From Lentisphaerota bacterium (GTDB taxonomy: Bacteria > Verrucomicrobiota > Kiritimatiellia > CAIQIC01 > Lenti-01): a stretch of 64,000 nucleotides of DNA. The position numbers and the translations under genes are program-made. Below the pieces are notes generated by a model that did no database searches, was not told the origin of the DNA, and saw nothing but the letters and a program-made list of their open reading frames with translations. The stretch lies in contig JAAZBB010000043.1 in the NCBI GenBank assembly GCA_012514035.1, positions 19,463 to 83,462 of the forward strand. Direction: 5' to 3'. Positions 3,562-55,477 of this stretch are shown here, piece after piece (position 1 is the stretch's first letter; the number at the start of each line of letters is the position of its first letter).

Positions 3562-3641
3562 CTCCGGGCGCGGAAAGGCCTGATTCGGAGTATGGCGGGG
3601 AGCGAGGCATTGCAGCCACCACACCGCTTTTCTTTCGTACG

Positions 3642-8870: not shown

Positions 8871-10271
8871 ATGGATCATCTGCCTGACCCGTCCGTTCCC
8901 GAACCGGAAGCCACGGCCCGGATCGGAACCGACCGCATCAGCCGGCTGCTGTTGCGCTTTTCCATCCCGGCCATTGCCGGGATGCTCGTGCAGGCGCTCT
9001 ACAACATCGTGGACCGGATGTTCATCGGATACGGCATCGGTCCCCAGGGCATTGCCGGAGTGACGATCAGTTTTCCCCTGATGATGGCGACGGTGTCGTT
9101 TTCCATTCTGGTGGGTGTCGGGGCCAACACGTTGTATTCCATCCGGATGGGCGAAGGCCGGCGGCAGGAGGCCGAGCGCATTCTGGGCAACGCCTTCGGG
9201 CTGCTGTTCTTCATCCCGCTGGCGGCCTCGCTGGTGGCGCTGTGTTTTCTCGATCCCCTGTTGCGCCTGGTGGGCGCCAGCGAGGAACTCCTGCCCCATG
9301 CCCGCGCCTATGCCCGGATCGTGCTGGGCGCGGCCGCCCTCAGCACCACGGGCCACGGCCTGTCGCATTTTGTCCGTTCCGACGGCCATCCGTTTGTCTC
9401 CATGGCCGCCATGATCCTCGGAGCCGTCACCAACACCATCCTCGATCCGCTCTTCATTTTTGTTTTTCGCTGGGGCATGGCCGGGGCCGCCTGGGCCACC
9501 GTGATTTCCCAGGGGCTGTCCTTTGCCTGGTGTTTCGGCTTCTTCCTGATGCCCAAGGAAGGCACCCGGCTCCGCCGCCGCAACCTGCGCTTGGACTTCC
9601 GCCAGATTGTCTGGCCCCTGCTCGCCATCGGTTTTGCGCCCTTCGCGATGAACCTGGCCAACAGCCTGCTCAATGTGATCCTCAACCGCGGCCTGGGCCG
9701 CTATGGCGGAGACGATGCGATTGCGGTCATGGGTATTCTCTCGGCCTACATGAGCATCATCTTCATGCCCGTTTTCGGCCTGACCCAGGGCGCGCAGCCC
9801 CTGATGGGCTACAACTTCGGCGCGCGCAAATACGGCCGCGTCCGGCACCTGTTCTGGACCTGCGTCATTGCCGCCACCATCCTGATGACCTGCGGTTGGG
9901 GCATCAGCCAGTTGTTCCCGCTGCCCATTGTGCGGCTGTTTGTCTCGGCGGATTCCCGGTTGATCCCCCTTGGCGTCCATGCCCTGCGCGTCTTCACCCT
10001 GGCCTTCCCGATCATCGGGTTTCCGATCATTGGCGGCCATCTGTTCCAAGCCATCGGCAAGCCCATCCAGGCCGGATTCCTCGCCCTCACCCGCCAAGTC
10101 ATTTTGTTCATCCCATTCCTCCTGATCTTCCCGCGCTTCTGGGGCCTGAACGGCATCTTCGCCGCCGCCCCCGCCTCGGACACCCTCACCTTCCTGATTT
10201 CCATCATTCTGGTGTCCCACCAGTTGCGCCTTTTCCAGCGGCTTGAACGCGAAACCGCCGAAACCGGTTGA
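8871..10271 (+). CDS. MATE family efflux transporter
   Basis: From ATG 8871: MDHLPDP..RLLLRFSIPAIAGMLVQALYNIVDRMFIG, with roughly a dozen hydrophobic helices. The ORF-track start at 8715 is an upstream extension. Confidence 0.85.
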   Translation: MDHLPDPSVPEPEATARIGTDRISRLLLRFSIPAIAGMLVQALYNIVDRMFIGYGIGPQGIAGVTISFPLMMATVSFSILVGVGANTLYSIRMGEGRRQEAERILGNAFGLLFFIPLAASLVALCFLDPLLRLVGASEELLPHARAYARIVLGAAALSTTGHGLSHFVRSDGHPFVSMAAMILGAVTNTILDPLFIFVFRWGMAGAAWATVISQGLSFAWCFGFFLMPKEGTRLRRRNLRLDFRQIVWPLLAIGFAPFAMNLANSLLNVILNRGLGRYGGDDAIAVMGILSAYMSIIFMPVFGLTQGAQPLMGYNFGARKYGRVRHLFWTCVIAATILMTCGWGISQLFPLPIVRLFVSADSRLIPLGVHALRVFTLAFPIIGFPIIGGHLFQAIGKPIQAGFLALTRQVILFIPFLLIFPRFWGLNGIFAAAPASDTLTFLISIILVSHQLRLFQRLERETAETG

Positions 10272-10425
10272 AACTACGAATCACGCGAATTGCACGAAAG
10301 AACGGCTAGTGCGTTTCCGTGAATCAAGTATCCGTTTCGGGCAACCCGACGAGGGCGGCGGAAAAAGAATATACGTAGGAGGAGAGCCCAGCGCTACATG
10401 CGTAGCACGTGGCTCTGTCGCGTGC
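10271..10425 (-). repeat. dispersed intergenic element (AACTACGAA..GCACGAA module plus CGTAGCACGYGGCTCTGTCGCGTGC module)
   Basis: 10271-10300 AAACTACGAATCACGCGAATTGCACGAAAG and 10401-10425 CGTAGCACGTGGCTCTGTCGCGTGC. Both modules recur at 21481..21812, and the first also at 50207..50245. Confidence 0.7.
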
Positions 10426-11540: not shown

Positions 11541-14500
11541 TTATTTGCACTCGATCTTGATGAAGAGGCGGCCATCCCCATCCAGATCCGGCACCAGGAT
11601 GGTGTAGGTACCCGTTGCGGTGATGACCTGCTGCACGCCGGAGGGCACCCAGCCGGCGCCATCCGTCAAATCATTGTTCTCCAGGACATCCAGGATGGCC
11701 GGCGGGGTGGGCAGATTTGTCACGGTGAACGTGACCTCTATCTGGCCATCGACAGGCGTGGCGAGGATGATTTGACCATCAGCCGGACCGCCGCTGGACG
11801 GCAGGTCCGTTTCATCCCTCGGATCGGTGCCCTGATCCACCTCGACGCCATCGTTAAACCCATCGCCGTCGGTATCCCAGAGCCGGGGATCAGTCTGGTG
11901 GAGCGCCAATTCCTCCCCGTCATCCAAGCCGTCATAGTCGGAATCCGCCCGCATGGGGTGGGTGCCCAGGAACAGTTCCTGGGCGTTTGACAGCCAGTCG
12001 CCGTCCGGATCGCCGGTGGCGCCGTTGTCGCCGGTATCATCGAGCGGATCGAGGCCGTGGTCCACTTCCCACCCATCTTCAAGGCCGTCGCTATCGGTGT
12101 CTTTCTTCAGCGGATCTGTGCCCAGTAGGACTTCCTGTCCATCGTCCAACCCGTCGCCATCGGTATCGGCAACGACCGGATTGGTGCCTTGGGCCAGTTC
12201 CACATCATTGGGCAAGCCGTCGCCGTCCGGATCGCCAGTGGCGCCGTCGTTGCCGGCATCGCTGAGCGGATTCAGGCCATAGGTCACCTCCCAGCCATCC
12301 GGGAGGGTGTCGTGGTCGGTATCCGGGTTGAGGGGATCCGTCCCGTGGGTGTTCACTTCCGCGCCATCGTTCAGGCCGTCGCCATCGGTGTCTGACACCA
12401 AGGGCTTGGAGCCGAGATCGAGTTCCTGGGCGTTGGACAGTCCGTCGTTGTCCGGGTCGCCATTCGCACCGTTGTCGCCGGCCGCGCTCAGCGGATTGAG
12501 GCCCATGGTTACTTCCCATCCATCCGGCAAGCCGTCCCCGTCCGTATCGTCATTCCGCGGATCGGTGCCGCGGGCCAATTCCTGGGCGTTGGTCAGTCCA
12601 TCTGTATCCGGATCGCCGGTGGCGCCGTCCGCACCCGCGCCGCTCAGGGGATTCAGTCCATACTTCACCTCCCATCCGTCCGGCAGGCTGTCGCCATCGG
12701 TATCCGGATTATTGGGATTGGTGGTGGCCGCCATTTCCTGGCTGTCGGTCAAGCCGTCGTTGTCCGAGTCAGCCGCCAGGGGATTGGTGATGTACCCGTC
12801 GGCGCCCAGCGTGACTTCTTCCTCGTCGTCCAGCCCGTCGCCGTCCGTATCGGCCTTCAGCGGATTGGTGCCATGGGTGTTGACCTCTGCGCCATCCCAC
12901 AGCCCATCGCTGTCGGAATCCTTCGGATCGACGCCGGCGGGAATCCCCATGGCGCTGGGATATGTGCCATACTTGAACTCGTCGCCATCGGTCAAACCAT
13001 CGCCATCGGTGTCGGTGAACTGGTTCATGGCGAGGCCACCCGAGTAGTATTTCTCCCAGATATCGGCCAGGCCGTCGTTGTCTGTATCCGCATCATGGAT
13101 GACCAGGTCGTTGCCAGACACCGTGGTGGCGCTCTTGATCTCGATCTTCTTGTTTGAGTAATCCACGGCGTAGATACTGGTGGCCGGGACAATGCTGACG
13201 CCGCCCTTGCTGGCGGCACCGCTCTTGCTTTTCCGTCCGGGCACGCTGCGGATGGCCGCCTCGACCCAGACAAATCTTTGCACCGAAGCGGGCTGTCCCT
13301 TGACCAGGCCCCAGGCCTCGCCCGGATCCAACACGCCATCGTTGTCCTGATCCTGGAACGCCCGGACGTAGTAGTTGGCTTCCTGTCCGAAGCGCAGCCC
13401 CATGAGCCGGTAATTGTAATTGGCATCGGCCTTGACCCTGGCCACGGGCCGCTGGTCAAACCCGCTGCCCTCATAGGCTTCCACCACGATGTTGGGACTT
13501 GGGGAGAACCCGTAATAGTAGGCGCGTCCGGTAATCATGCCGGCGCCGCTGGCCGCCGGAGACTGCAGATTGACCGTGAAACTGGTCCAGACACTGGACT
13601 TTGACACGCGCGGATTGATGGCGGTCACTTGGATCCGGTAAGCCCCATTGGTAAAATGATTCCAACCTGCCAGGAAGGGCAGATCCATTTCGGCGCGGCC
13701 GTTCCGGTCAATGTAAGGGGCAAACACTGTTGTATCCAGCAACGTCTCGGTGCCACTGGCATTCTGAACTTGAATCCGGATTTGGGCGGTATTGGGATCC
13801 AAGGTCATCTGCAAGTGTTCCTGCGCAAAGAGGACACTGCCGACGGGGCTGATGATGGTCGGATTGACGAGGTTCGTCGGATAGTTCACGGAATTGGTGA
13901 CGACCGCAATCTCGTTGTTGTTTTGGTCGAACACCTTGCACACATAGGTCCCGGACATCGGCCCGGCCGATATGTCCGCCCAAGGGCCGGACTTGTTGTT
14001 GCGGAAGTCATATTCATGCAAGTAGTTCCGGCTGGCAGCACATCCGCCCCGGGTGGTCTCGTACACTACCTGGCCGTTTCTCAGCACGGTGACCGTGTAG
14101 CCCGACCCGCCCGTGGTGGCATTGGTATCGCCGCCCGTGGTGGCCCAGTCAAAGCGTGCGAATCCATTCGCTTTTTCGCGCAGGGCAATTTCGATCTTGG
14201 CCTCGCCCCACTGGATGTTTTCGGGCATGTACTCGCTGAAGCCCATCAGTTCCCCGGTGTTCCATTGGCCGTCGTTGTTGGCATCCACGAAGGCCATGAA
14301 ATAGTTCCGGCCCTGGCGCAGGTGCCCGCCGTTCGTCCAGTCGGTAATGTTCAGGGAATTGCCATCACGGATGGGTTCTTCGAGTTCGAGCGACGTCATC
14401 GCGTCCGGGCAGTTCATCGCCGGGTCGGTATAGGCCCAGATGCGCAGGGTGCCGTCCACTTCCGGGCAGTCCGTCTTGAACTGGAAGGTGATGCTCGGCT

Positions 14501-17500
14501 TGGGATAGGAAACGGGGTCGTCGGGATCGCAGTACGGGACGGAAAACCCGGTGCTGCTGATCAGGTTGGAGGAGACTTCCCCCTCGGTGTTGGTGGTCAC
14601 CTCGTAGACATTGGCGCTATGGGTCTTGTAGTAGGCCATGTATTCCGAATAGTTGTCCCATCCGTCCCCGTCCGGATCGAGGTTGGCATCGAACCGCAGC
14701 GGGCTGCACGCGTTGGGGAAGAGCGATTCCCAGCCGTCGGGCATGTTGTCGCCATCCATGTAGAGCGACCCGTAGGAAGCGCCGGTCGCGGGACTGTCGT
14801 AGTCGCCGGTTCCATCGCCATCGGTGTCGAATTCGAACGGATTGGTGCCCGCCAGGAATTCGGCTCGGTTGTTCAGGCCATCGTCATCCGGGTCGCCCCA
14901 GGCGCCGTTGACGAAATCGGTCTGATTAAAGATGTAATCCATCCGGCCGTCGCCATCCACGTCCACGGTTGACGTAGCGGCATCACCGAAGCCACCGTCA
15001 TTTTCATTGAGGCCATAGCGGATTTCCCACGCATCGGGCAGGCCGTCGCCGTCCGTGTCCTTGCCGCCGGACGGAGTGCCATCGCTCCCGGTTCCGCTGC
15101 CTCCACCGGTCGGGGCTGCTGTTTGATAGAACTCGACCACGCCGGACATCTTGGCCGCATGCGCCCACTGGTTTTCCCAGTCGCGGAGCACGGCATAGTC
15201 CTCCGTGCTGGGGATGAACCCCCACCGCCGCCAGACATGGTCCTCGTACTTGAAGGCCACCCCTTCGCTTTGAATGGTAACGTACAGGGCCGCGGCGTCG
15301 GCCGCGCTCGTCACCGGCACCAGAGCCATTCCGTCCCACTCCACGATGGATTCAGTAGAATTCATGTAGAACCGGTGGCCGGGCAGCAACGGATCAGCCG
15401 GGAGAACTTGGACCGCGCCGGTGGCATCCTCCCCATTGTAGATGTACACCATGTTGCTCGGGGCACAGACAAACATGTCGCCCAGCGTCGGAGGATACCA
15501 GGCATTCCCGGGGTCCGTGATCCCGGCAATGGTGTTGACCTGGCCGGCAATGGTCGCGCGGGCATCCGCCAGCCAGTGGCGTCCTTTGCCCCAGCGCAGC
15601 CAGTCGGTGCCGTCATACCGATAGAGGATTCGTTCCGCGTGGTTCCAGCCGAAGTCGCCCGGATTCGCGCTGCCTGTGCCGGGCACGATGCCGGTGCCGT
15701 CAAAAACCGGCCCGACGCCCGTCAGTTCCCCCACCACGCCGGAATCATTGACATAGACCGTGGTCCCGTCCACCCATGTGTCGCCATCCACCATGTCGCT
15801 GGCCAGCGGCGGGGACGTGTACCGGACGGAATACAGCAGATTGGTGATCCGGGTCGAATCCCACGTGTTGCTGCTGAGGGTCGGCCAGCCGCCGTCGTCA
15901 AAGTTGAAGTAGGCAGCCAAGCCCTCCTCCTGCCCTTCCAGCAACTGAGACATGGTCGCGGAAATGCTGGCGCCATCGCGCACATCGGACCACAGCCGCA
16001 GCTCATCCACGAAGCCATGGAAACGCTCGCCGATGCGGATGATGCTGGACGGGCCCTCGCCCATGGCCGGAGCGCTAATGTTGAGATCCTGGCGGGACGC
16101 AACCGCTTGGCCATTGACAAACAGAGTCAAGCGCTTGCCGGAACCGTCATAGGTGGCCGCCAGATGCGTCACCAACGCCGCATCGTAGGTGGCGGAAACC
16201 GCCAGCGGAACGCTGCCGGTCACGGCGATCGGAACCCCAATGCGGCCACTGGCCGTCTTGTACACAAAGCGTGCCTGGGGATAGAGATTGTTCCCGCTCC
16301 GGATCACGCGGAGTTCGTAATTGGCAATCAGCATGCCGTTGGTGACTTCTTCCACCGCCCGGCGGAAGATCGGCGCCCCCTGCCCGTCGGCCAGAAAGTC
16401 CACGCGGGCGGGCAGCACTGCCGCTTCCAGCGTCCACGAATTTCGGACAAAGGCCTCGCGGTCGAGCACCTCTAGCCAACTGCCTGGACGGCCCGTGAAA
16501 TAGGCGGTCAGGTACTGTTTGGGCGAGGTGGAATCCGACGCAACGAAGCCCTGGAAGACCTCGTCGTTATCGGACATGCCGTCGTCGTCGGTATCCGCCA
16601 GATCCGGACGCGTGGCATTGCGCGCCTCCTGGCGGTTGGAGAGTCCGTCGCCGTCGAAATCCTCGTCGCCGTCCGGAATCCCGTTTTCATCCGTGTCCGG
16701 TTTGCGTGGATTAGTCCGTGCCCAGTATTCCTGCAGGGTGGTCAGGCCATCGCCGTCCGGATCGCTGTCCGCATCGGAAAGCATTCGGCCCGTGACTCCC
16801 ACTTGGGCCACCGCCACCCCACCCTTGGACACCCACCACGTTTCCCCATCATCGATGAAACCGCTCACCTGGCCGGACCGGATCTCCCAGTTGGTGACGG
16901 TATTCAACACTGTGTTGGTGGTTTCCCCCTCAACCGTCGTGTTGGTCTCGACCGAATAATCGCCAATCAGCACCGTATTCGGGCATACCGACGTGGTGAT
17001 CACGCCGTTGACGACCGTGATGATGCCGGGACAGGTTGCGCTGGCCCAGGTCTGCCCGCCGTCGGCCGACGAGTTGAAGGTGAATCCACTGCGCTTGATC
17101 AAAATTTCCGGCACCCCCATCTTCGCCCAGCCCGGGTCGTATTCCAGCATGGAGTGTTCCTGGGTCAGCCAGGCAAAGGGGTTCAACTCGTGGACGATTT
17201 CCCAGCTATCCGGCAGGCCATCACCGTCGGAATCCAGCTCGCCGCGCTGGTTGTCCAAGGCACCATTGACCGGCGCTGTGCGGCCCGCATCAAACACGAA
17301 GCCGCCGCCGAGGGCCAGCGAAGGCAGTGCATAGGCCCGGTCCGGATACAGATGATCATGGAACAGGCGGTTGGGCACGTTTTCCGCCCCCGGGAAATCG
17401 TAGCCCAGCAAGCTGGACATCGCGCGGTGCCGGCTGTCCACGGCCACGTTGCCGCCGTCGTCAAAGTTGTAGTAGGCCAGAAGGGCGCCGTTCAGTTGCT

Positions 17501-20500
17501 GCCCGTCCAAAGTGACCATTTGGCGACCCTCGAGGAGAATGCTGCGGTTTGCCGCCACTTCCGCCTGGGATCGCTCAATGCCCCAGATGCGCAGTTCGTC
17601 AATCCAGAGGCGATTGGCAAAACCGCTTCCTTTTGCAAACTCCAGCTGCCCGCCGTTGCCGAATGTTGAAACCAGATAGCCGCCGGTGGTTTCCTCCACC
17701 ACCTGGCGGGATTGCACGAGCGTGCCGTCCACATACAGCGAAAGCGCATTCTTCCTGTGATCGAAGGTCGCCGCCAGATGGACCCAGCGGTTCCGCGGCA
17801 GGGGACGCGTGGCGCTGGCCTGGTACCACTTCCCGCCCAGCGAATGCAGACCGGCATAGGGAACCGTCTCCACGGTCTGGCCGCCGATGACCACATTGGT
17901 CACGCCCAGATCATAGGCCCGGCGCTCATTGCCGCCGATCATCAGATAGCCTTTGGTAAACGATCCGCTGGCGGGGGCATCCCCCTCCAAATACACCCAT
18001 GCTTCGACCGTGAAGTCCCGGGAGAAATAGCGGGGGTCGTCCACCAAAAGCGTTTTCGAACCTTCATCCGTCAGAATCTTGGCCGAACGGGCCACCAGCG
18101 GATTGAGCGACTGCACAGGGCTGGTCGGCTGCTTGCCGCGCGCCACGTCCATCTGGATTTCCGTCGAGTCCGGCAGGCCGTCGGCATCCGTATCCGTGCC
18201 CGGCATCGGCACCATCAGCGGCAGGTTGTCCGTGACGGGCTTGCCGCCGGTCACGAGATCGGTTCCAGCCGTTTCCGCATCCGTCAGGATGCTGTCGGGA
18301 TCCGAGAGGATCACGTCATTGGTGGGAATCAGCAGCGTGCTCAACGCCAGCGGGGTGTATACGTTGGCTTCATTTCGCGCATACCACAGAGCGTCAATGC
18401 CCGGCGTATAACGGCCGTCTTCCGCCCCGGCCGCTTCCAAGTAGTACAATCCGCTGAATGAGGTGGTAAAAGGCTGGAAGCCGCCGGTCCCCATGCTGTT
18501 GGTGAATCCATCGCCGTAGAAGGGAGCCAGGCTGGCCATGTCATTCGCGTAATACGGGAACGAAGGCACGCCGACCGTCGGCACCAGTTTGGGTTCGGGG
18601 TAAGGCACAAACACCACATTGGTCACGACTTCCTCGGGCGGGCCCGGGTTGGTGACCACCATCAAGCCTTGCATCCAGTTTGTGACGGTGGTTTCGTAGG
18701 CGGCCGGATGGAAGAATCCCGGATAATCCCGCATGGAATAGGACGCCGCCAAGCCGGGCGCCATGATTTCGTAGTACATGGGCGCCTGCCAGTCGTGGCG
18801 CAGCAGGATCCAGTTGGCCAGCACATAGGTCTCGAACGAGGATTGGTTTGGATAGTTCATGGCCCGGGCGGTCCAGGGAATGGTTTCATCCCCGGTTCCC
18901 GTGATAAAGTCGATGCGATATCCGTCCTGGCCAAAGTATTCCTGGATATTCAGGAGCCCGTCCCCGTCCGGATCGCCCAAGGCGCCGCTGGGATTAATCT
19001 CTACGGGCAGGTCGACAATGCCCAGCAGCGTTCCGCTGTCATCTTCATCTTCATCCTCGGCCAGATCGAACGCGGCCATGCCGGTCTTGGGGTTGAGGCC
19101 ATGCTCGACTTCCCAACCATCGATCAGCCCGTCCTTATCGGTATCCCATCCGTCGTACCGCACCACGAGGTTCGGCCGGGGCTCCGTCCAATAGCTGGCG
19201 GCCGACGGCCAAGCAATCCGGCCCGGAAGGCTCTGCAAGTCGGGACTGCCGGGCGATGACGCCACCTTGACACTGCCGGTCCAGTCGGCTTTGGTGTAGT
19301 CCACCGTGAAATAGCGGACGGAATCGCCCCACTGGCTGTATTTCGCCTGCTGGAGATATCCGGGCGTGCCATGCAGGCACCCCCCGCGGCTGGGCTGCCG
19401 GAAGCGCAATCCGGCACTCGTGACTTCCTTCTGCTCCAAGACGCACTTGGACGACATGAAAGGCCATATCGCCAGCGGATTCCCCCACCCGTATGTGAGC
19501 AAGGGATGGAGGCATTGCTCCCGGAAATTCGTCAGCCCGTCCTTATCCGGATCGGAATTATAGTGGAAGAGATCACCAACGGGCTCGGCTTCCACCGGCT
19601 TGAATCCATTCTTTGCGAAAAACTTTTCGAAGGAGTCCAGCAACCAGTCGTTATCGGTATCGCAATCGAAGGGGCTGGTCCATGGCTTGTCATTCAATTT
19701 CTCCGTCGGGAAATGATCGCGGGTCTCTCCCAGGGGCGGGCATCCTTCGGCGAAGTTGATGTCTTTGTTGGCTTTCTTCAATTCCTGCAGGGCCGTCATG
19801 CCGTCACCGTCAATGTCCATCCCGGGGTGCTGGAGGGTCTTGACGTCGCCCAGATCAGGGAGAAATGGGTCTTGCATCTTGTCGCCTTCAATGACTCCCT
19901 TGCGATTGGCGTAATCCGTGGTGTAGGTGAAGACATCCGTATTATAGATGAACCCGTTATCCTTGGGATCCAGCCCGGCATAGATTTCAACCGGGTCCTT
20001 CAGCCCGTCGCCGTCGGTGTCTTCCGCCCAGGGGTTGGTCCCGGCATAGGTAATCATCTTTGTGGATTCGTACAGGTCGGAGATGCCGTCGCAATCCGTA
20101 TCGAACAACTCGGGATCGGGGCCGTAGCCGAAGAATGCCGGATCGGCTTCATCGGTGACCACGTTTTGATTGTACGTGAACCAGCCCTCCTTGCCGTTGA
20201 TCTTGACTTTCCAGCCATTGAATTCCTGGATATTGGTCAGTCCGTCGCTGTCCTTGTCATCGGTGGGCTGGTAGCCGCTTTCCCAGACGAGATTGGTTTT
20301 CTGGGTCACTTGGTCGATTTCGACCTTGACCCAGTCATTGGCGGCGGCAAAATCCACGTAGCTCGGGAACAAGCCGGTCACCACCGCTTGCGCCTGCTGA
20401 AGTCCCCCGCTGCATAGCAGAAGGAGTGCTCCTCCCCACAAAATGGTTTTCACGGGATTATGCTTGATGGTGTGTGCTGTTCGCATGGCAACCTCTTTTT

Positions 20501-21119: not shown

Positions 21120-21480
21120 GCGTTCTTCCTCATTAACGACAAGGGCTTCAAGACCTTTCGGGGATAGTAGACTGCAAAACGGTGTCGTTTGCAAACAAAA
21201 ACGTCCCCTCAACGATAACCTCAACGATAACGCTCGCCGGACTCCATGCCGGGGTTCCATGCGGGTCGGATCAGGCAACCGCCGTTTGGGGCAAAATCAC
21301 AACTCCAAATCCGGTCGGATCGGTTTGGAGTGCGAGGACAAGGGGCATTGGCCACGGCCCCGCTTTAGCTGCCGCCTCGGCTGCTAAAAAGCCAAAGCGG
21401 CGTGGCGCTCGCAAAGCCTCGCTTCCCGCCGCACTCCAAACATAGCACGGGGCTCCGTCCCGCGCAGGCCCTGGAACCCG

Positions 21481-21812
21481 GCACGCGACAGAGCCGCGTG
21501 CTACGTAACATCCGCCCGCGACAATACAACGGCCAGCGGGAGACGACCCCGCTCCGCATCCTGACAATCCTGTTAATCTTGAGGCTCTTGCACAACTCGT
21601 TCCTGGAAACGGGCAGGACGGAGCGTGGAATCTGTCTGCCGCAGAGCGCGCAGAGAAGAACCCGGAGGGGAAACCGACAGGCGGTTGCTCACAGAGGCAC
21701 CGAGACCACAAAGAGAAATCCGGCTGCGGTTCCGAGCCCGGCGCGTTGGGCTCACGCGCCCTTCCGTCCCACCCCATTCGTGCCATGCGCGCAATTCGTA
21801 GTTCGCCCCCTG
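21481..21812 (+). repeat. dispersed intergenic element, long copy of the family at 10271..10425
   Basis: 21481-21505 GCACGCGACAGAGCCGCGTGCTACG is the reverse complement of 10401-10425 with 1 mismatch. 21776-21812 ATTCGTGCCATGCGCGCAATTCGTAGTTCGCCCCCTG matches 50207-50245 and the reverse complement of 10271-10300. Confidence 0.7.
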
Positions 21813-28690: not shown

Positions 28691-28786
28691 GAATTCAGGA
28701 GCCAGGATTCAGGAGACAGAATGAAATCCCAGACCCGATGATCCGGACCCGCATACTGAATTCTGAATACTGGATTCTGAATACTG
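28691..28786. repeat. imperfect inverted repeat built from TTCAGRA units
   Basis: GAATTCAGGAGCCAGGATTCAGGAGACAGAATG ... ATACTGAATTCTGAATACTGGATTCTGAATACTG. Same unit type as 45423..45531. Confidence 0.65.
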
Positions 28787-28804
28787 CCGCCCGCTGCGAG
28801 GCGG

Positions 28805-43504: not shown

Positions 43505-45422
<1,918 letters not shown>

Positions 45423-45531
45423 GTATTCAGAATTCAGGAGTCAGAATTCAGAATGCGAGCTCGTCTCCTCCATGCAACTGCCGAAAACTCTTGGCTTCCA
45501 TTCTGAATCCTGAATTCTGGATACTGAATTC
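45423..45531. repeat. 33-nt-arm inverted repeat built from TTCAGRA units, filling the gmd-rmd spacer
   Basis: GTATTCAGAATTCAGGAGTCAGAATTCAGAATG (45423-45455) versus the reverse complement of 45499-45531, GAATTCAGTATCCAGAATTCAGGATTCAGAATG. 27/33 positions pair. Confidence 0.7.
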
Positions 45532-45537
45532 TTCCTT

Positions 45538-48006: not shown

Positions 48007-49095
48007 TCAGGTGCTGGCGCGAATTTCGATCACATCGCCGTCCTGGACAATGTACCCCTTGCCCTCCAGGCGCAGTTTGCCCGCCTCGCGGCAGGCCGCA
48101 TGGGTTTTCTTCTCGATCAGCGTCGGAGCATCAACCGTTTCGGCGCGAATGAATCCCCGCGCCAGATCGGTGTGGATCTTGCCGGCCGCCGTCTCCGCGT
48201 TGTCGCCGCGCCGAAGCGTCCAGGCACGCACCTCGTCTTCCCCCACCGTGAAGAAACTGATGAGATTCAGGGTCTGATACGCCGCCTGGATCAGCCGCGT
48301 CCGCGCCGGCTCCCTCAGCCCGTAGTCTTGCAGGAAACCGGCCTGGTCACCCGGGGCCAGGGCGGCGATTTCCGCCTCCAGCGGGGCGCAGAAGGCTAGC
48401 AGATCGAGCCCCTTCTCCTGGCACGCCGTGCGCAATGCCGCGCACTGTTCTCCGGTTGGATCCGCATCGCCGGTGTTGGCAATCACCAGCACCCGCTTCT
48501 GCGACAGAAAACTAAAACTGCTAACCAGTTTCTGCTCCTCGGCTGGCAGTTCCAGGTCGCGCAAGGCCCGTCCGGAATCGATCGCCGCCTTGCATTTCTG
48601 CAGCACCGCCAGCTCCGGCAGCCCCTGCTTCAGCCCGCGCTTGACGTCCTGCTCGATTTTTTCGACGCGGCGCTCGACCTTCTCCAGATCCGCCATCGCC
48701 AGGTCCAGCAGCACGGATTCCAACTGCGCCACGGAATCCAACGGCTTGCCCGCGCCATCCGTTTCCCCAAACGATTGCACTACCAGCGCAAAGGCGTCCG
48801 CCTCGCCCAGAAATGCATTCAGCGGCCCGAATCCGCTGCCCTCCGCATGCGCGGGCAGCGCCACATCCACAAACGTGACTTCCGCCGGAATGTATTTCTT
48901 GGGCTGGAAGATATCGCGCAGCGCGGCCAGCCGCGGATCGGGCACCTTGACCGTACCGAGCCGGTGCCCGCCCCTGGTCGCGAAATGCGGTCCTTCGGGC
49001 GTCTGAATCAGCGCATCGAAAACCGCTGTCTTGCCCGCCGCCCGGGCCCCGATCAGATATAAAAGCAAAGCTGCCATGGGCCCGTAGTAAAACAT
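48007..49095 (-). CDS. ychF: YchF/OLA1-family ribosome-binding ATPase
   Basis: P-loop IGARAAGKTAVFDAL. C-terminal TGS-like ISFFTVGEDEVRAWT..GKIHTDLARGFIRAE..GKGYIVQDGDVIEIR. Alternative start at 49077. Confidence 0.8.
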   Translation of the reverse strand: MFYYGPMAALLLYLIGARAAGKTAVFDALIQTPEGPHFATRGGHRLGTVKVPDPRLAALRDIFQPKKYIPAEVTFVDVALPAHAEGSGFGPLNAFLGEADAFALVVQSFGETDGAGKPLDSVAQLESVLLDLAMADLEKVERRVEKIEQDVKRGLKQGLPELAVLQKCKAAIDSGRALRDLELPAEEQKLVSSFSFLSQKRVLVIANTGDADPTGEQCAALRTACQEKGLDLLAFCAPLEAEIAALAPGDQAGFLQDYGLREPARTRLIQAAYQTLNLISFFTVGEDEVRAWTLRRGDNAETAAGKIHTDLARGFIRAETVDAPTLIEKKTHAACREAGKLRLEGKGYIVQDGDVIEIRAST

Positions 49096-49290
49096 ATCGA
49101 CACATCCGATGCAATCGCTTCACGACGGCAGTCAGTTTCGACACCCCGATGGATTTCGATGGCGCCCCATTTTTCATCATGTCGTAACACAACCCTGCCG
49201 CCTCGCAAACCCGTATGTTACAAGGCGACAGCCCATCATCCCGAATACGGCGCGGGGCGGTTCCTCTTTTCCGGTACTTGATTTGATCGG

Positions 49291-49973
49291 ATGGGGACAT
49301 GGGGGCTTGGACCCCGTGCCCCTTCTTCACCACCGGACATGCGGTTTCCCGCATTCGGCGGTTGAACTGGGCGCTACCTTCTCTGGCTGCAGCAAAGCAA
49401 AGGCAAGGTACACGTATCTCGCTCCTGCCTGTGCTTCATCGAACAAGTCTCCCGACTTTCCCTTGAATCATAGAAAGTGCCCGCAAACGACATCCATAAT
49501 GCATCCACATTCCACCGCCGTTCGCCCTTTGGCTCGGCTGGATCAGCCTTTGCCTCCTTTTCGGATCTTGTCACTCTCTTTCTCCGGGGAACTTCGGTCT
49601 GTTTTCTCCAGTTCTTCGGCCCTTCGCTCCGGCCGCCTTTCGGCGGCTCTCTTCGCTACTACGGCCTCTGATGACTCCTCCTCCCGACTCTCGCCCCGGA
49701 GGCTTCCCCAGGTAAGGTGCGTGAACTTTCGGCCCGCGCCGCCAGACTCTTCCCGATCCGGCTTTCGGCGACGGTTGGATTTCGCGTTCTCTCGCACGCT
49801 CATCGCCCGGATTGAGCCTCGCTGCCTGTTCGTGTTTCTGCGGTCGTGCCTTGGCTACGGACTTCTTTCAGCTCGGACCCTTGCGGGGACGGCCTTGTCT
49901 TTCGCTTCGGTTGTCGTCGCTATCTCCGGCCATCTCCTTTCAGGTGACAAGTTCACGCCCATGCTGGGCACAC
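49291..49973 (-). mobile_element. ORF-less group II intron-like ribozyme (class unassigned; domain V triad CGC)
   Basis: Minus strand starts GTGTGCCCAGCATGGGCGTGAAC (GUGYG 5' end). Contains CAACCGAAGCGAAAGACAAGG and many other GAAA-capped hairpins. Domain V-like CCGCCGAAUGCGG-GAAA-CCGCAUGUCCGGUGG at 49331-49364. Domain VI-like GGGGCACGGGG-UCCAAG-CCCCCAUGUCCCC with an unpaired A. Ends ..CCCCAU. No reverse-transcriptase ORF. Confidence 0.7.
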
Positions 49974-50084
49974 GAGTGCGGCGGCATGACGCCGCTTTGG
50001 AGCCGCGACATGCTTGCCCGCCGCAGCCTTGGACAAAGGCGGGGGGCGGCCCGGGAAAGCGCAGTCATGCCCACACTCCAAAAT
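49974..50084 (-). repeat. TTGGAGTGYG...CGCACTC inverted-repeat element (copy interrupted by the intron)
   Basis: Minus strand: TTTTGGAGTGTGGGC (50084-50070) ... GCCGCCGCACTC (49985-49974). Same architecture at 21321..21441 and 55279..55352. A half copy lies at 51202..51221. Confidence 0.6.
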
Positions 50085-50359
50085 GGCCGACCCTCTTGCC
50101 CCCCCTGTTGTGCCTTCGCGTCCATGCCGTTGGCTTGGCATGCTTGGTGCGAGAACCCATCCCGGTCTCGACGGGGCCGCCCTGGCTTTTCGATCCCGCC
50201 TCCCCCTTTCGTGCATTTCGCGCATTTCGTAGTTTGTCCCCCTGTTTCCTGCTTTCTTGACTTGCCGTTGCATCCAGTCCTACCCTAATCACCGTGACGA
50301 TCCGAGAAGGACATCATTCGGACGGTCATGACCGGATTCCTTCACCCCTGAAAAGGAAA

Positions 50360-51112
50360 ATGACCATGGATATTCCCCGGATATTCACCATCACGGAAAG
50401 CGCCCACCGCATTCACAACCCGATCACGCCCGAAAAGCTCGCCATTCTCGGCGCGGCGCTGCGCCTGGCGCCGGGGGCCCGGGTGCTCGATCTCGGCAGC
50501 GGGTCGGGCGAGATGCTGTGCACCTGGGCGCGCGATCACGGCATCACCGGCACCGGCGTGGACATGAGCCCGTTGTATACCGAACAGGCGAAACGACGGG
50601 CCGAAGAACTCGGCGTCGCCGGCCAGGTGGAGTTTATCCATGGCAATGCCGCGGGCTACGTCGTCGGCGAGAAGGTGGATGTGGCCGCCTGTGTCGGAGC
50701 CACCTGGATCGGCGGAGGAGTCGCCGGCACGATCGAACTGCTGAAGCAGAGCCTGCGCCCCGGAGGAATCCTCCTCATCGGCGAGCCGTTCTGGCGGCAG
50801 ATGCCGCCGACGGAAGAAATCGCCAAAGGGTGTCTGGCCCATTCCATCGCCGACTTTGTCTTGCTGCCGGAATTGATCGCGTCGTTCGGGCGCCTGGGCT
50901 GTGATGTCGTGGAAATGGTTCTGGCCGACCAGGATGGCTGGGACCGGTACGAGGCGGCCAAATGGCTGACCATGCGCCGATGGCTGGAGGACAATCCCGG
51001 GAACGAGTTCGCGAGCCAGGTCCGGGAACAGCTGGACACCGAACCCGTGCGATATGCCACCTATACGCGCGACTACCTGGGCTGGGGCGTGTTTGCGCTG
51101 ATGCCGCGGTGA
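50360..51112 (+). CDS. class I SAM-dependent methyltransferase
   Basis: VLDLGSGSGEM (motif I), GVDMSP. AAGGA Shine-Dalgarno sequence just upstream of ATG 50360. Confidence 0.75.
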   Translation: MTMDIPRIFTITESAHRIHNPITPEKLAILGAALRLAPGARVLDLGSGSGEMLCTWARDHGITGTGVDMSPLYTEQAKRRAEELGVAGQVEFIHGNAAGYVVGEKVDVAACVGATWIGGGVAGTIELLKQSLRPGGILLIGEPFWRQMPPTEEIAKGCLAHSIADFVLLPELIASFGRLGCDVVEMVLADQDGWDRYEAAKWLTMRRWLEDNPGNEFASQVREQLDTEPVRYATYTRDYLGWGVFALMPR

Positions 51113-51497
51113 TGCGCGGGAAGAGAAATCGTTCGCTGTTCATCCGATTCGATCCAAAGCGGTGCCCCTCCACAGGCGGGCAGGCTGCGCTTCGCTTGTC
51201 CCCGCACTCCAAAGCCGATCCCGCCCCTCCTCGGCAGCTGCGCTCGGGGAGCGCGACGCTCCCTCCGGGTCCGACGCGTTCAGCGAGCGTATCTACAACG
51301 GAACCCAGACGCCTCGGCAAGGCGTACCTACCTGCCGAGCCCAGTCGCGCCTTTGACGTGGCACGTAATGGACCTCCCCCTCTCGGCTCCCCGTCTGTGG
51401 CAAAAATTCTTGCTTCGCTTCCTTTGAAATCGACACGTTACGTTTCTTGACGTTATTCTCCCCACCAACGGACGGCTTTACGGCTGACCACGTGGAG

Positions 51498-55193: not shown

Positions 55194-55477
55194 CCAGAGT
55201 GAATCTGAACCCATGCGCTCATGAAAAACAGGAGTTTGATTCGGGGGCAACCCTGTTTCATTGACAACGATCAGCCAAACTTGGAGTGCAGCGGAAAGCG
55301 AGGCTCGGTGAGCGCCACGGCGCCAAGCACCTTGACCCCGCACTCCTAAACAGCCAACCAGGGGAGCCGGCGGGGCGATGCCCATCGGCCCATGCAACGG
55401 AGAGGCGCCCGTTTGATTCCGGTCGGCCGGATTTTCTTTCCCTTTTATGAGTTCATGAGTTCTGATTAACTCTTTTC

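Follow-up and report, generated by a model that had tools for sequence, protein, structure and literature searches.

Class IIC group II introns are inserted after terminators or other inverted repeats, at sites defined by a 3–4 bp IBS1 and a stem-loop (PMC1702495), and their published mode of recognition combines a short IBS1 with a single-base IBS3 and the stem-loop (PMC1702495, PMC4424553). ORF-less introns are reported to be rare in bacteria, and to rely normally on related proteins acting in trans (PMC4424553). [quoted passage not shown] 2024; according to two papers that report this work (PMC11754743, PMC12990946), HYERs are multi-copy, and their cleavage is guided by a 6-nt recognition site. 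Other members of the class, the IIC-attC introns, insert into an imperfect inverted repeat, of which they use a single strand, folded as single-stranded DNA (PMC4424553, PMC3001079). Short, dispersed, intergenic and hairpin-forming sequences are also known as REP, REPIN or BIME elements (Tobes and Pareja 2006; Nunvar 2010; Di Nocera 2013), and a group II intron of P. putida is REP-associated in two of its nine copies (PMC1525189).

The locus described here lies in a window of 64,000 nucleotides (the whole stretch of DNA that was analysed), and very probably consists of a REP/REPIN-like palindromic repeat whose 3′ arm is interrupted, at CGCACTC^CAAA and 190 nt upstream of ychF, by an ORF-less class IIC intron. 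An earlier note, made from the sequence alone, had proposed a dispersed inverted-repeat family with a minus-strand group II intron sitting in one arm of one of its copies. These proposals hold: the intron is recovered by Rfam matches on that strand, it lies in the right arm of a repeat copy (copy C), copies A and B and the half copy D are all confirmed, and a further copy, E, can be added. The ychF gene (48007–49095, minus strand) starts downstream of the intron on the same strand, and a SAM-dependent methyltransferase gene (50372–51112) is on the plus strand, so that intron and repeat lie between divergent genes. The parts of the intron are as follows:

49286–49973, minus strand: intron of 688 nt, filed as a class IIC group II intron without a reading frame; Rfam matches, 5′ and 3′ ends as in relatives
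49789–49793, minus strand: EBS1 loop GAGAG, in the domain I hairpin GCGUGC-GAGAG-AACGC; pairs with exon ..C-A-CUC
49368–49610, minus strand: domain IV, about 243 nt, no reading frame
49330–49361, minus strand: domain V, 32 nt, with CGC triad; from Rfam and the relatives' alignment
49286–49326, minus strand: domain VI and 3′ tail, bulged A at 49292; from alignment with relatives

Two Rfam models match on the minus strand above their gathering scores (group-II-D1D4-3, RF02001, 49717–49890, 76 bits; group-II-D1D4-1, RF01998, 49619–49716, 36 bits), and the D5-D6 model (RF00029) matches on the same strand at 49286–49363 with 32 bits and an E value of 4e-4, below its gathering score of 40. The D1-D3 architecture is documented by 60 consensus pairs that show at least two pair types across 24 introns. 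The closest relative found (L243) is a full-length intron on a stand-alone contig of 1909 nt, 90% identical to the window intron over D1-D3 and D5-D6 and with an identical EBS1 loop, and its protein of 424 aa contains RVT_1 and GIIM only. Compared with solved structures, this protein is closest to the GsI-IIC RT (E 2.5e-119), followed by other IIC maturases, with far lower scores for LtrA (IIA) and for the 6ME0 chain, which we take to be a IIB maturase. Filing the window intron as an ORF-less class IIC intron rests on the type of this protein, on the Rfam D1D4 matches, and on the 32-nt domain V with its CGC triad. B.h.I1, O.i.I1 and GsI-IIC likewise have a GUGUGCC 5′ end and a short domain V with a CGC triad (PMC1702495, PMC4424553), and the start of B.h.I1, as readable from primers (PMC1702495), resembles the 5′ end of the window intron. 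The endonuclease-less RT/maturase of about 424 aa found in full-length relatives is another IIC trait, but the window intron itself is without a protein.

Domain IV could not be matched to its counterpart in any relative, other ORF-less copies included, and holds no remnant of a reading frame; tblastn with the L243 protein returned one 12-residue stretch only, which lies upstream of domain IV within the shared ribozyme sequence. The Y(A/V/C)DD motif of reverse transcriptases was not found in any frame of the whole 64-kb window, intron included. A search for a helper protein placed none in the host, the closest candidates being encoded on stand-alone contigs of about 2 kb or in an organism of 71% G+C. 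Lack of a reading frame is common in this lineage, concerning 20 of 30 complete copies. A loosened domain V pattern retrieved 118 loci from the genome collection (two tighter patterns, with too narrow a loop, retrieved none), and a scan with the intron 5′ end gave 26 copies in other genomes. Introns of this lineage are common in MAGs of Verrucomicrobiota and Kiritimatiellia, as well as in gammaproteobacterial MAGs and isolates such as Methylococcaceae and Chromatiaceae. One gammaproteobacterial MAG (MFD00032.bin.3.452) carries four ORF-less copies of 688 nt (L151, L172, L199, L218) beside a full-length intron of 1885 nt (L160), an arrangement that would be expected if the ORF-less form were mobilised in trans.

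The intron begins with GUGUGCCC at 49973 (in a longer reading of its start, GUGUGCCCAGCAUGGG) and ends with ...CCCCAUCCGAU at 49286, and thus has the group II termini GUGUG (49973–49969) and ..GAU (49288–49286) that are also those of its relatives. Its length of 688 nt and its end at 49286 follow from several lines of evidence taken together. The Rfam D5-D6 alignment reaches 49286. CCGAT forms the 3′ end of all four relatives from the metagenome scan, whose loci differ and whose 3′ exons are unrelated; complete relative copies also end in CCGAT, and 111 of 118 further copies have a CCGAT where it would be expected downstream of domain V. [quoted passage not shown] Finally, excision of 49286–49973 yields CCGCCGCACTCCAAA, which agrees exactly, over 15 nt, with the right arm of copy A (21426–21440). 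The intron is inserted between CGCACTC and CAAA, no target bases being replaced, and the ligated exon junction would read ...GCCGCCGCACTC|CAAATCAAG.

The repeat family and the flanks of the intron comprise the following features:

21315–21447, plus strand: copy A, intact, with perfect arms at 21324–21334 (TTTGGAGTGCG) and 21430–21440 (CGCACTCCAAA)
55273–55357, minus strand: copy B, intact, shorter and empty, in the orientation opposite to A; arms CTTGGAGTGC and CGCACTCCTAA
49974–50083, minus strand: 5′ exon part of copy C, with left arm TTTTGGAGTGTG (50072–50083), spacer, and CGCACTC (49974–49980)
49282–49285, minus strand: 3′ exon part of copy C, CAAA, the 4 nt that complete the right arm; C 49285 is the putative IBS3
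51141–51221, minus strand: copy D, left half only, empty; CGCACTCCAAA at 51203–51213 on the plus strand
3579–3631, minus strand: copy E, a degenerate right half (..CGCCATACTCCGAATC), from a profile search
49981–49995, minus strand: local hairpin GCGGC-GUCAU-GCCGC, its end 7 nt away from the 5′ splice site

All five copies are intergenic and together cover about 0.7% of the window, in which CGCACTCCAAA, with at most one mismatch, occurs eight times against 1.5 expected. Their arms open with (T)TTGGAGTG(C/T)G, which gives the element a GGAG head, and internal sequence is shared beyond the arms (39 nt at 87% between A and B). Folded as single-stranded DNA, copy A is predicted to form a long hairpin of −37.8 kcal/mol (z about −3.2), as is copy C once restored (−35.6 kcal/mol, z −3.15); the predicted folds of copies B and D are no better than those of shuffled sequences. 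The small hairpin at 49981–49995, already noticed from the sequence alone (GCGGC-GTCAT-GCCGC), is present, and competes in predicted folding with the long stem of the element. Copy A offers two empty CGCACTC^CAAA sites, one per strand, and the window as a whole has a single occupied arm and six equivalent empty ones (both arms of A, both of B, that of D and the left arm of C). A possible 7-bp direct repeat around copy B (CAGCCAA) was considered as a target-site duplication, and was dropped as it has no counterpart flanking A or C.

The complementarity between the guide loop and the 5′ exon, which the earlier note had proposed for checking, was found: the GAGAG loop can form no more than three contiguous pairs with the exon end, or four out of five when set against CACUC. 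An IBS1 of 3–5 nt and a stem-loop directly 5′ of the site are shared with other IIC introns, as is probably a single-base IBS3. The target itself departs from the classical one, as it is a dispersed palindromic repeat between divergent genes rather than a T-run terminator; at copy C no terminator-like site is present, and CAAA, not a T run, follows the junction. In the classical IIC case IBS1 follows the stem, whereas at this locus it lies inside the predicted stem, four more stem pairs (CAAA:TTTG) extending beyond the site. As with IIC-attC introns, insertion is into an imperfect inverted repeat, one strand of which would fold on itself when single-stranded (PMC4424553, PMC3001079); in contrast to attC sites, the arms have neither a GTTRRRY nor an RYYYAAC core, there is no cassette array, and the copies lie among housekeeping genes. 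The likeness to REP elements is in the short, dispersed, intergenic and hairpin-forming nature of the repeat, from which the GGAG head (instead of GTAG or GTGG), the spacer of 45–95 nt, and the presence of only about five copies in 64 kb set it apart. No Y1 transposase was found among the Pfam calls between 40 and 61 kb of the window.

To what extent can such a placement be generalized to the relatives of this intron? A G+C-rich hairpin abuts the GUGYG 5′ splice site in 25 of the 26 relatives found by their 5′ end (the exception, L117, having none), and in 105 of 111 copies the 3′ exon opens with a C at the IBS3 position. A search for EBS3 by covariation singled out no position, IBS3 being nearly always C. 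The EBS1 loop, for its part, covaries across relatives with the last 3–5 bases of the exon:

EBS1 UAGG(G), exon end CCUA: six introns
EBS1 UGGGA, exon end UCCCA: Amphritea
EBS1 GAGAG, exon end CACUC: the window intron; same loop and CTC flank in L243 and L246
EBS1 UAGGA, exon end CCUA: L247 (its protein and the L243 protein are 90% identical)

L246 encodes the same protein as L243 and occupies the site CTC^CAAAAGG in a different organism, of 71% G+C. In a Saccharospirillum MAG, each of 11 intron copies follows GTCGATGRGGAYATCGAC-(A/G)CTC^ (...ATCGAC(A/G)CTC^), and at least 11 empty repeats read ...CTC^CA(A/T), with partner arms TTGGAG(C/T)GTCGAT; the junction C(A/G)CTC^CA and the GGAG/CTCC ends are the same as in the window. 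Occupied and empty copies of the same repeats are also found together in Porticoccaceae, Thiodictyon, Amphritea and Phycisphaerales MAGs, and in a long-read Verrucomicrobiae MAG (MFD01213.bin.2.98), in which eight ORF-less copies of 705 nt are inserted in a repeat family that also has empty copies. These eight (L138, L142, L153, L168, L178, L190, L196 and L209) each follow a REP-like hairpin ending in CCTA, and several are then directly followed by a second, inverted REP (..CCTA^CGTAGGC..). A metagenome contig of 1.5 kb (L011) has two copies of a 75-nt hairpin repeat, one of them occupied by a mini-intron of 257 nt (574–830) which keeps about the first 35 nt and D5-D6; the empty copy aligns straight across the junction. 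In a Phycisphaerales MAG (L107, 1–100), about the first 40 nt of the intron lie between two copies of a REP-like hairpin, TACGATTACGCTTCGCTAATCGTACCTA, this intron being either truncated or interrupted by the repeat. The hairpins occupied by several relatives match published GTAG- or GTGG-type REPs (e.g., GTAGGGTGGGGC... and GTAGGTTGGG...), the intron being on the complementary strand, at CCTA^C (PMC2817692, PMC3733652).

The hairpins, the covariation of EBS1 and the families of occupied and empty repeats bear out, at the level of the lineage, the earlier suggestion of hairpin-guided targeting. They also support the repeat as the kind of target that this lineage uses, a claim that we confine to that level: homing of the intron within this genome, which had been suggested as well, is left unsupported by the single copy seen in the organism. 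By analogy with the established IIC mode, the intron RNA would have reverse-spliced into DNA whose repeat had folded as a hairpin; recognition would have involved the stem-loop, 3–5 exon bases paired with EBS1 (GAGAG against C-A-CUC), and the C of the 3′ exon paired with EBS3, and cDNA synthesis may have been carried out by an RT supplied in trans from a full-length relative, such as the L243/L246 intron.

A broader reading, which can be advanced only tentatively, is that the window intron belongs to a widespread IIC sublineage that comprises protein-coding as well as ORF-less (HYER-like) introns and has specialised in REP-type palindromic repeats, not in terminators. Such introns may insert complementary to the repeat head, at CCTA^C for G^TAGG, TCCCA^C for G^TGGGA and CTC^C for G^GAG; their EBS1 may track the head of the local repeat, so that the introns would live as parasites on another class of repeats, the window providing a GGAG-type case in a PVC bacterium. 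A search of the literature, of incomplete coverage, found no description of IIC introns placed at the heads of REP repeats with matching EBS1, and this may be the sole aspect of the present case that is new. The rule is testable, in that the sublineage should land at the base of REP-like hairpins, with EBS1 following the repeat head. If true, it would explain how very small ribozymes find many safe genomic sites, and would provide natural pairs of guide loops and targets for work on programmable IIC ribozymes. As for the ORF-less intron itself, it adds an example from a PVC bacterium to a known kind.

The present state of this copy can be judged from its structure, its copy number and its distribution among strains. 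Measured against the consensus structure of 24 introns, it keeps 83 of 89 pairs in D1-D3, and 25 of 29 pairs in D5-D6, the lowest value of the 24 (the full-length L243 keeps all). An A at 49355 creates an A.C mismatch next to the bulge of domain V, where the other 23 introns have G-C, and three consensus pairs of domain VI are broken; the broken pairs of both domains are common to the two strains in which the locus was seen. Strains were sampled through 21 contigs with an identical methyltransferase, of which ten, from ten samples, were fetched: all show the same arrangement, and every one that reaches the intron includes it. A second strain is represented by eight contigs, and the one that was aligned (L096) carries the intron. 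In this second strain (L014, L096), one T is missing at 49857 (intron position 117; GUCCG-AGCC) and domain IV has two substitutions. Apart from these changes, the two strains do not differ over 1.27 kb. A search for an empty orthologous site found none, the contigs of both strains that reach the site being occupied; in the nearest genome, an Opitutia MAG (YchF 84% identical), a tRNA lies upstream of ychF and synteny is different.

A domain V scan of the metagenome collection found no second copy of the intron in this organism, only this locus being returned; blastn found no match on plasmids, and a protein-database search with the antisense ORF, used to look for more copies, again returned the same locus only. 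That contigs of up to 218 kb could be assembled through the intron would speak against any further near-identical copies. The earlier note had held that its homing-site interpretation would fail if other copies lay in unrelated contexts, or if the copy was the only one and the motif match was confined to 13 nt; an only copy is what the organism appears to present. Taken together, the broken pairs, the lack of a second copy and of a protein, and the empty sites nearby suggest a fixed, probably single-copy relic with eroding domains V and VI, which would not be actively homing and is probably inert.

Could the intron instead still be active, either as a HYER-type ribozyme that works without a protein or as a spliced leader element acting on the expression of ychF? 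Judged from sequence, this is unlikely, in spite of several features that would fit. ORF-less IIC introns with hydrolytic cleavage of DNA and RNA have been described (PMC11754743, PMC12990946), and the window intron, as an ORF-less IIC intron of 0.6–0.7 kb, resembles HYERs as far as their descriptions, rather than their sequences, allow the two to be likened; some of its relatives are also multi-copy and ORF-less (eight copies of 705 nt in the Verrucomicrobiae MAG, four of 688 nt in the gammaproteobacterial one). In addition, the intron is fixed in two strains with hardly any variation, points in the same direction as ychF, and keeps most of its D1-D3 pairs. The near-identity of the strains continues into the flanks, however, and so points to no special constraint on the intron; the A.C mismatch lies beside the catalytic bulge of domain V and, with the three broken pairs of domain VI, leaves this copy the worst preserved of the 24 in these two domains. 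Furthermore, the copy is apparently single and partly eroded, the only locus found in the contigs of the organism, whereas HYERs are reported to be multi-copy.

Returning to the intron as a probable relic at a preferred site, its association with the repeat might be fortuitous, the intron having entered this intergenic spacer for unrelated reasons, without the repeat being a preferred target. A single copy in the organism and six equivalent arms left empty in the window would be compatible with such a coincidence, which is nonetheless improbable: the repeats make up a very small part of the window, the junction has the same position relative to the hairpin base as in the relatives of other genomes, and EBS1 matches the exon.

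That repeat and intron form one composite mobile unit, as had also been suggested, is very improbable. In its favour, about 24 nt of 5′ flank are shared by all 11 Saccharospirillum copies; but these repeats are often found empty, none of A, B, D and E has an intron, and close relatives of the intron sit in unrelated hairpins.

[quoted passage not shown] The likeness of CCGATC to the intron end (CCGAU|C) is a coincidence, as the CCGATC of A and D lies outside the left arm, on the opposite strand, and is shared because the repeat extends that far.

For the annotation of the locus, the preferred reading of an ORF-less class IIC intron inserted in a repeat arm implies a ribozyme and a repeat in place of a hypothetical protein of 383 aa on the opposite strand. 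This ORF (49109–50260, plus strand) has no Pfam match and spans the intron and copy C in antisense; the protein is very likely spurious, an ORF arising in G+C-rich structured DNA. In the second strain it is called as 360 aa. YchF, 84% identical to that of the Opitutia MAG and 76% to that of a Kiritimatiellae MAG, indicates that the host is an uncultured bacterium of the PVC group, and the source samples are anaerobic digesters according to our reading of the sample accessions. The organism is plentiful in the JGI digester samples 3300009642 and 3300010345, and in ENA ERZ28617931.

The window holds other repeated sequences. A second dispersed intergenic repeat, AAACTACGAA..GCGCGAA.TGCACGAAAG, is found at 10271–10300, 21777–21803 and 50206–50235, one of these being 120 nt from copy C, and a JGI contig of 102 kb that shares the locus begins, by coordinate arithmetic, at about window position 21794, inside a copy of this second repeat. 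A 25-nt inverted pair, CGTAGCACGTGGCTCTGTCGCGTGC (10401–10425 and 21481–21505, 96% complementary), adjoins the second repeat on both occasions, as if the two were parts of a larger composite repeat. A 14-nt unit that is richer in A+T (ATACTGAATTCTGA-like) forms clusters 16.6 kb apart, at 28737–28792 and 45422–45532, with units in both direct and inverted orientation. Finally, dozens of 60-nt units, spaced by 66–159 nt, extend from about 11800 to 20300; their minus strand would encode Asp-rich, GxxDxDxDG-like motifs which, by eye, appear to be calcium-binding repeats of the thrombospondin type 3-like kind, within one or more very large repetitive proteins.
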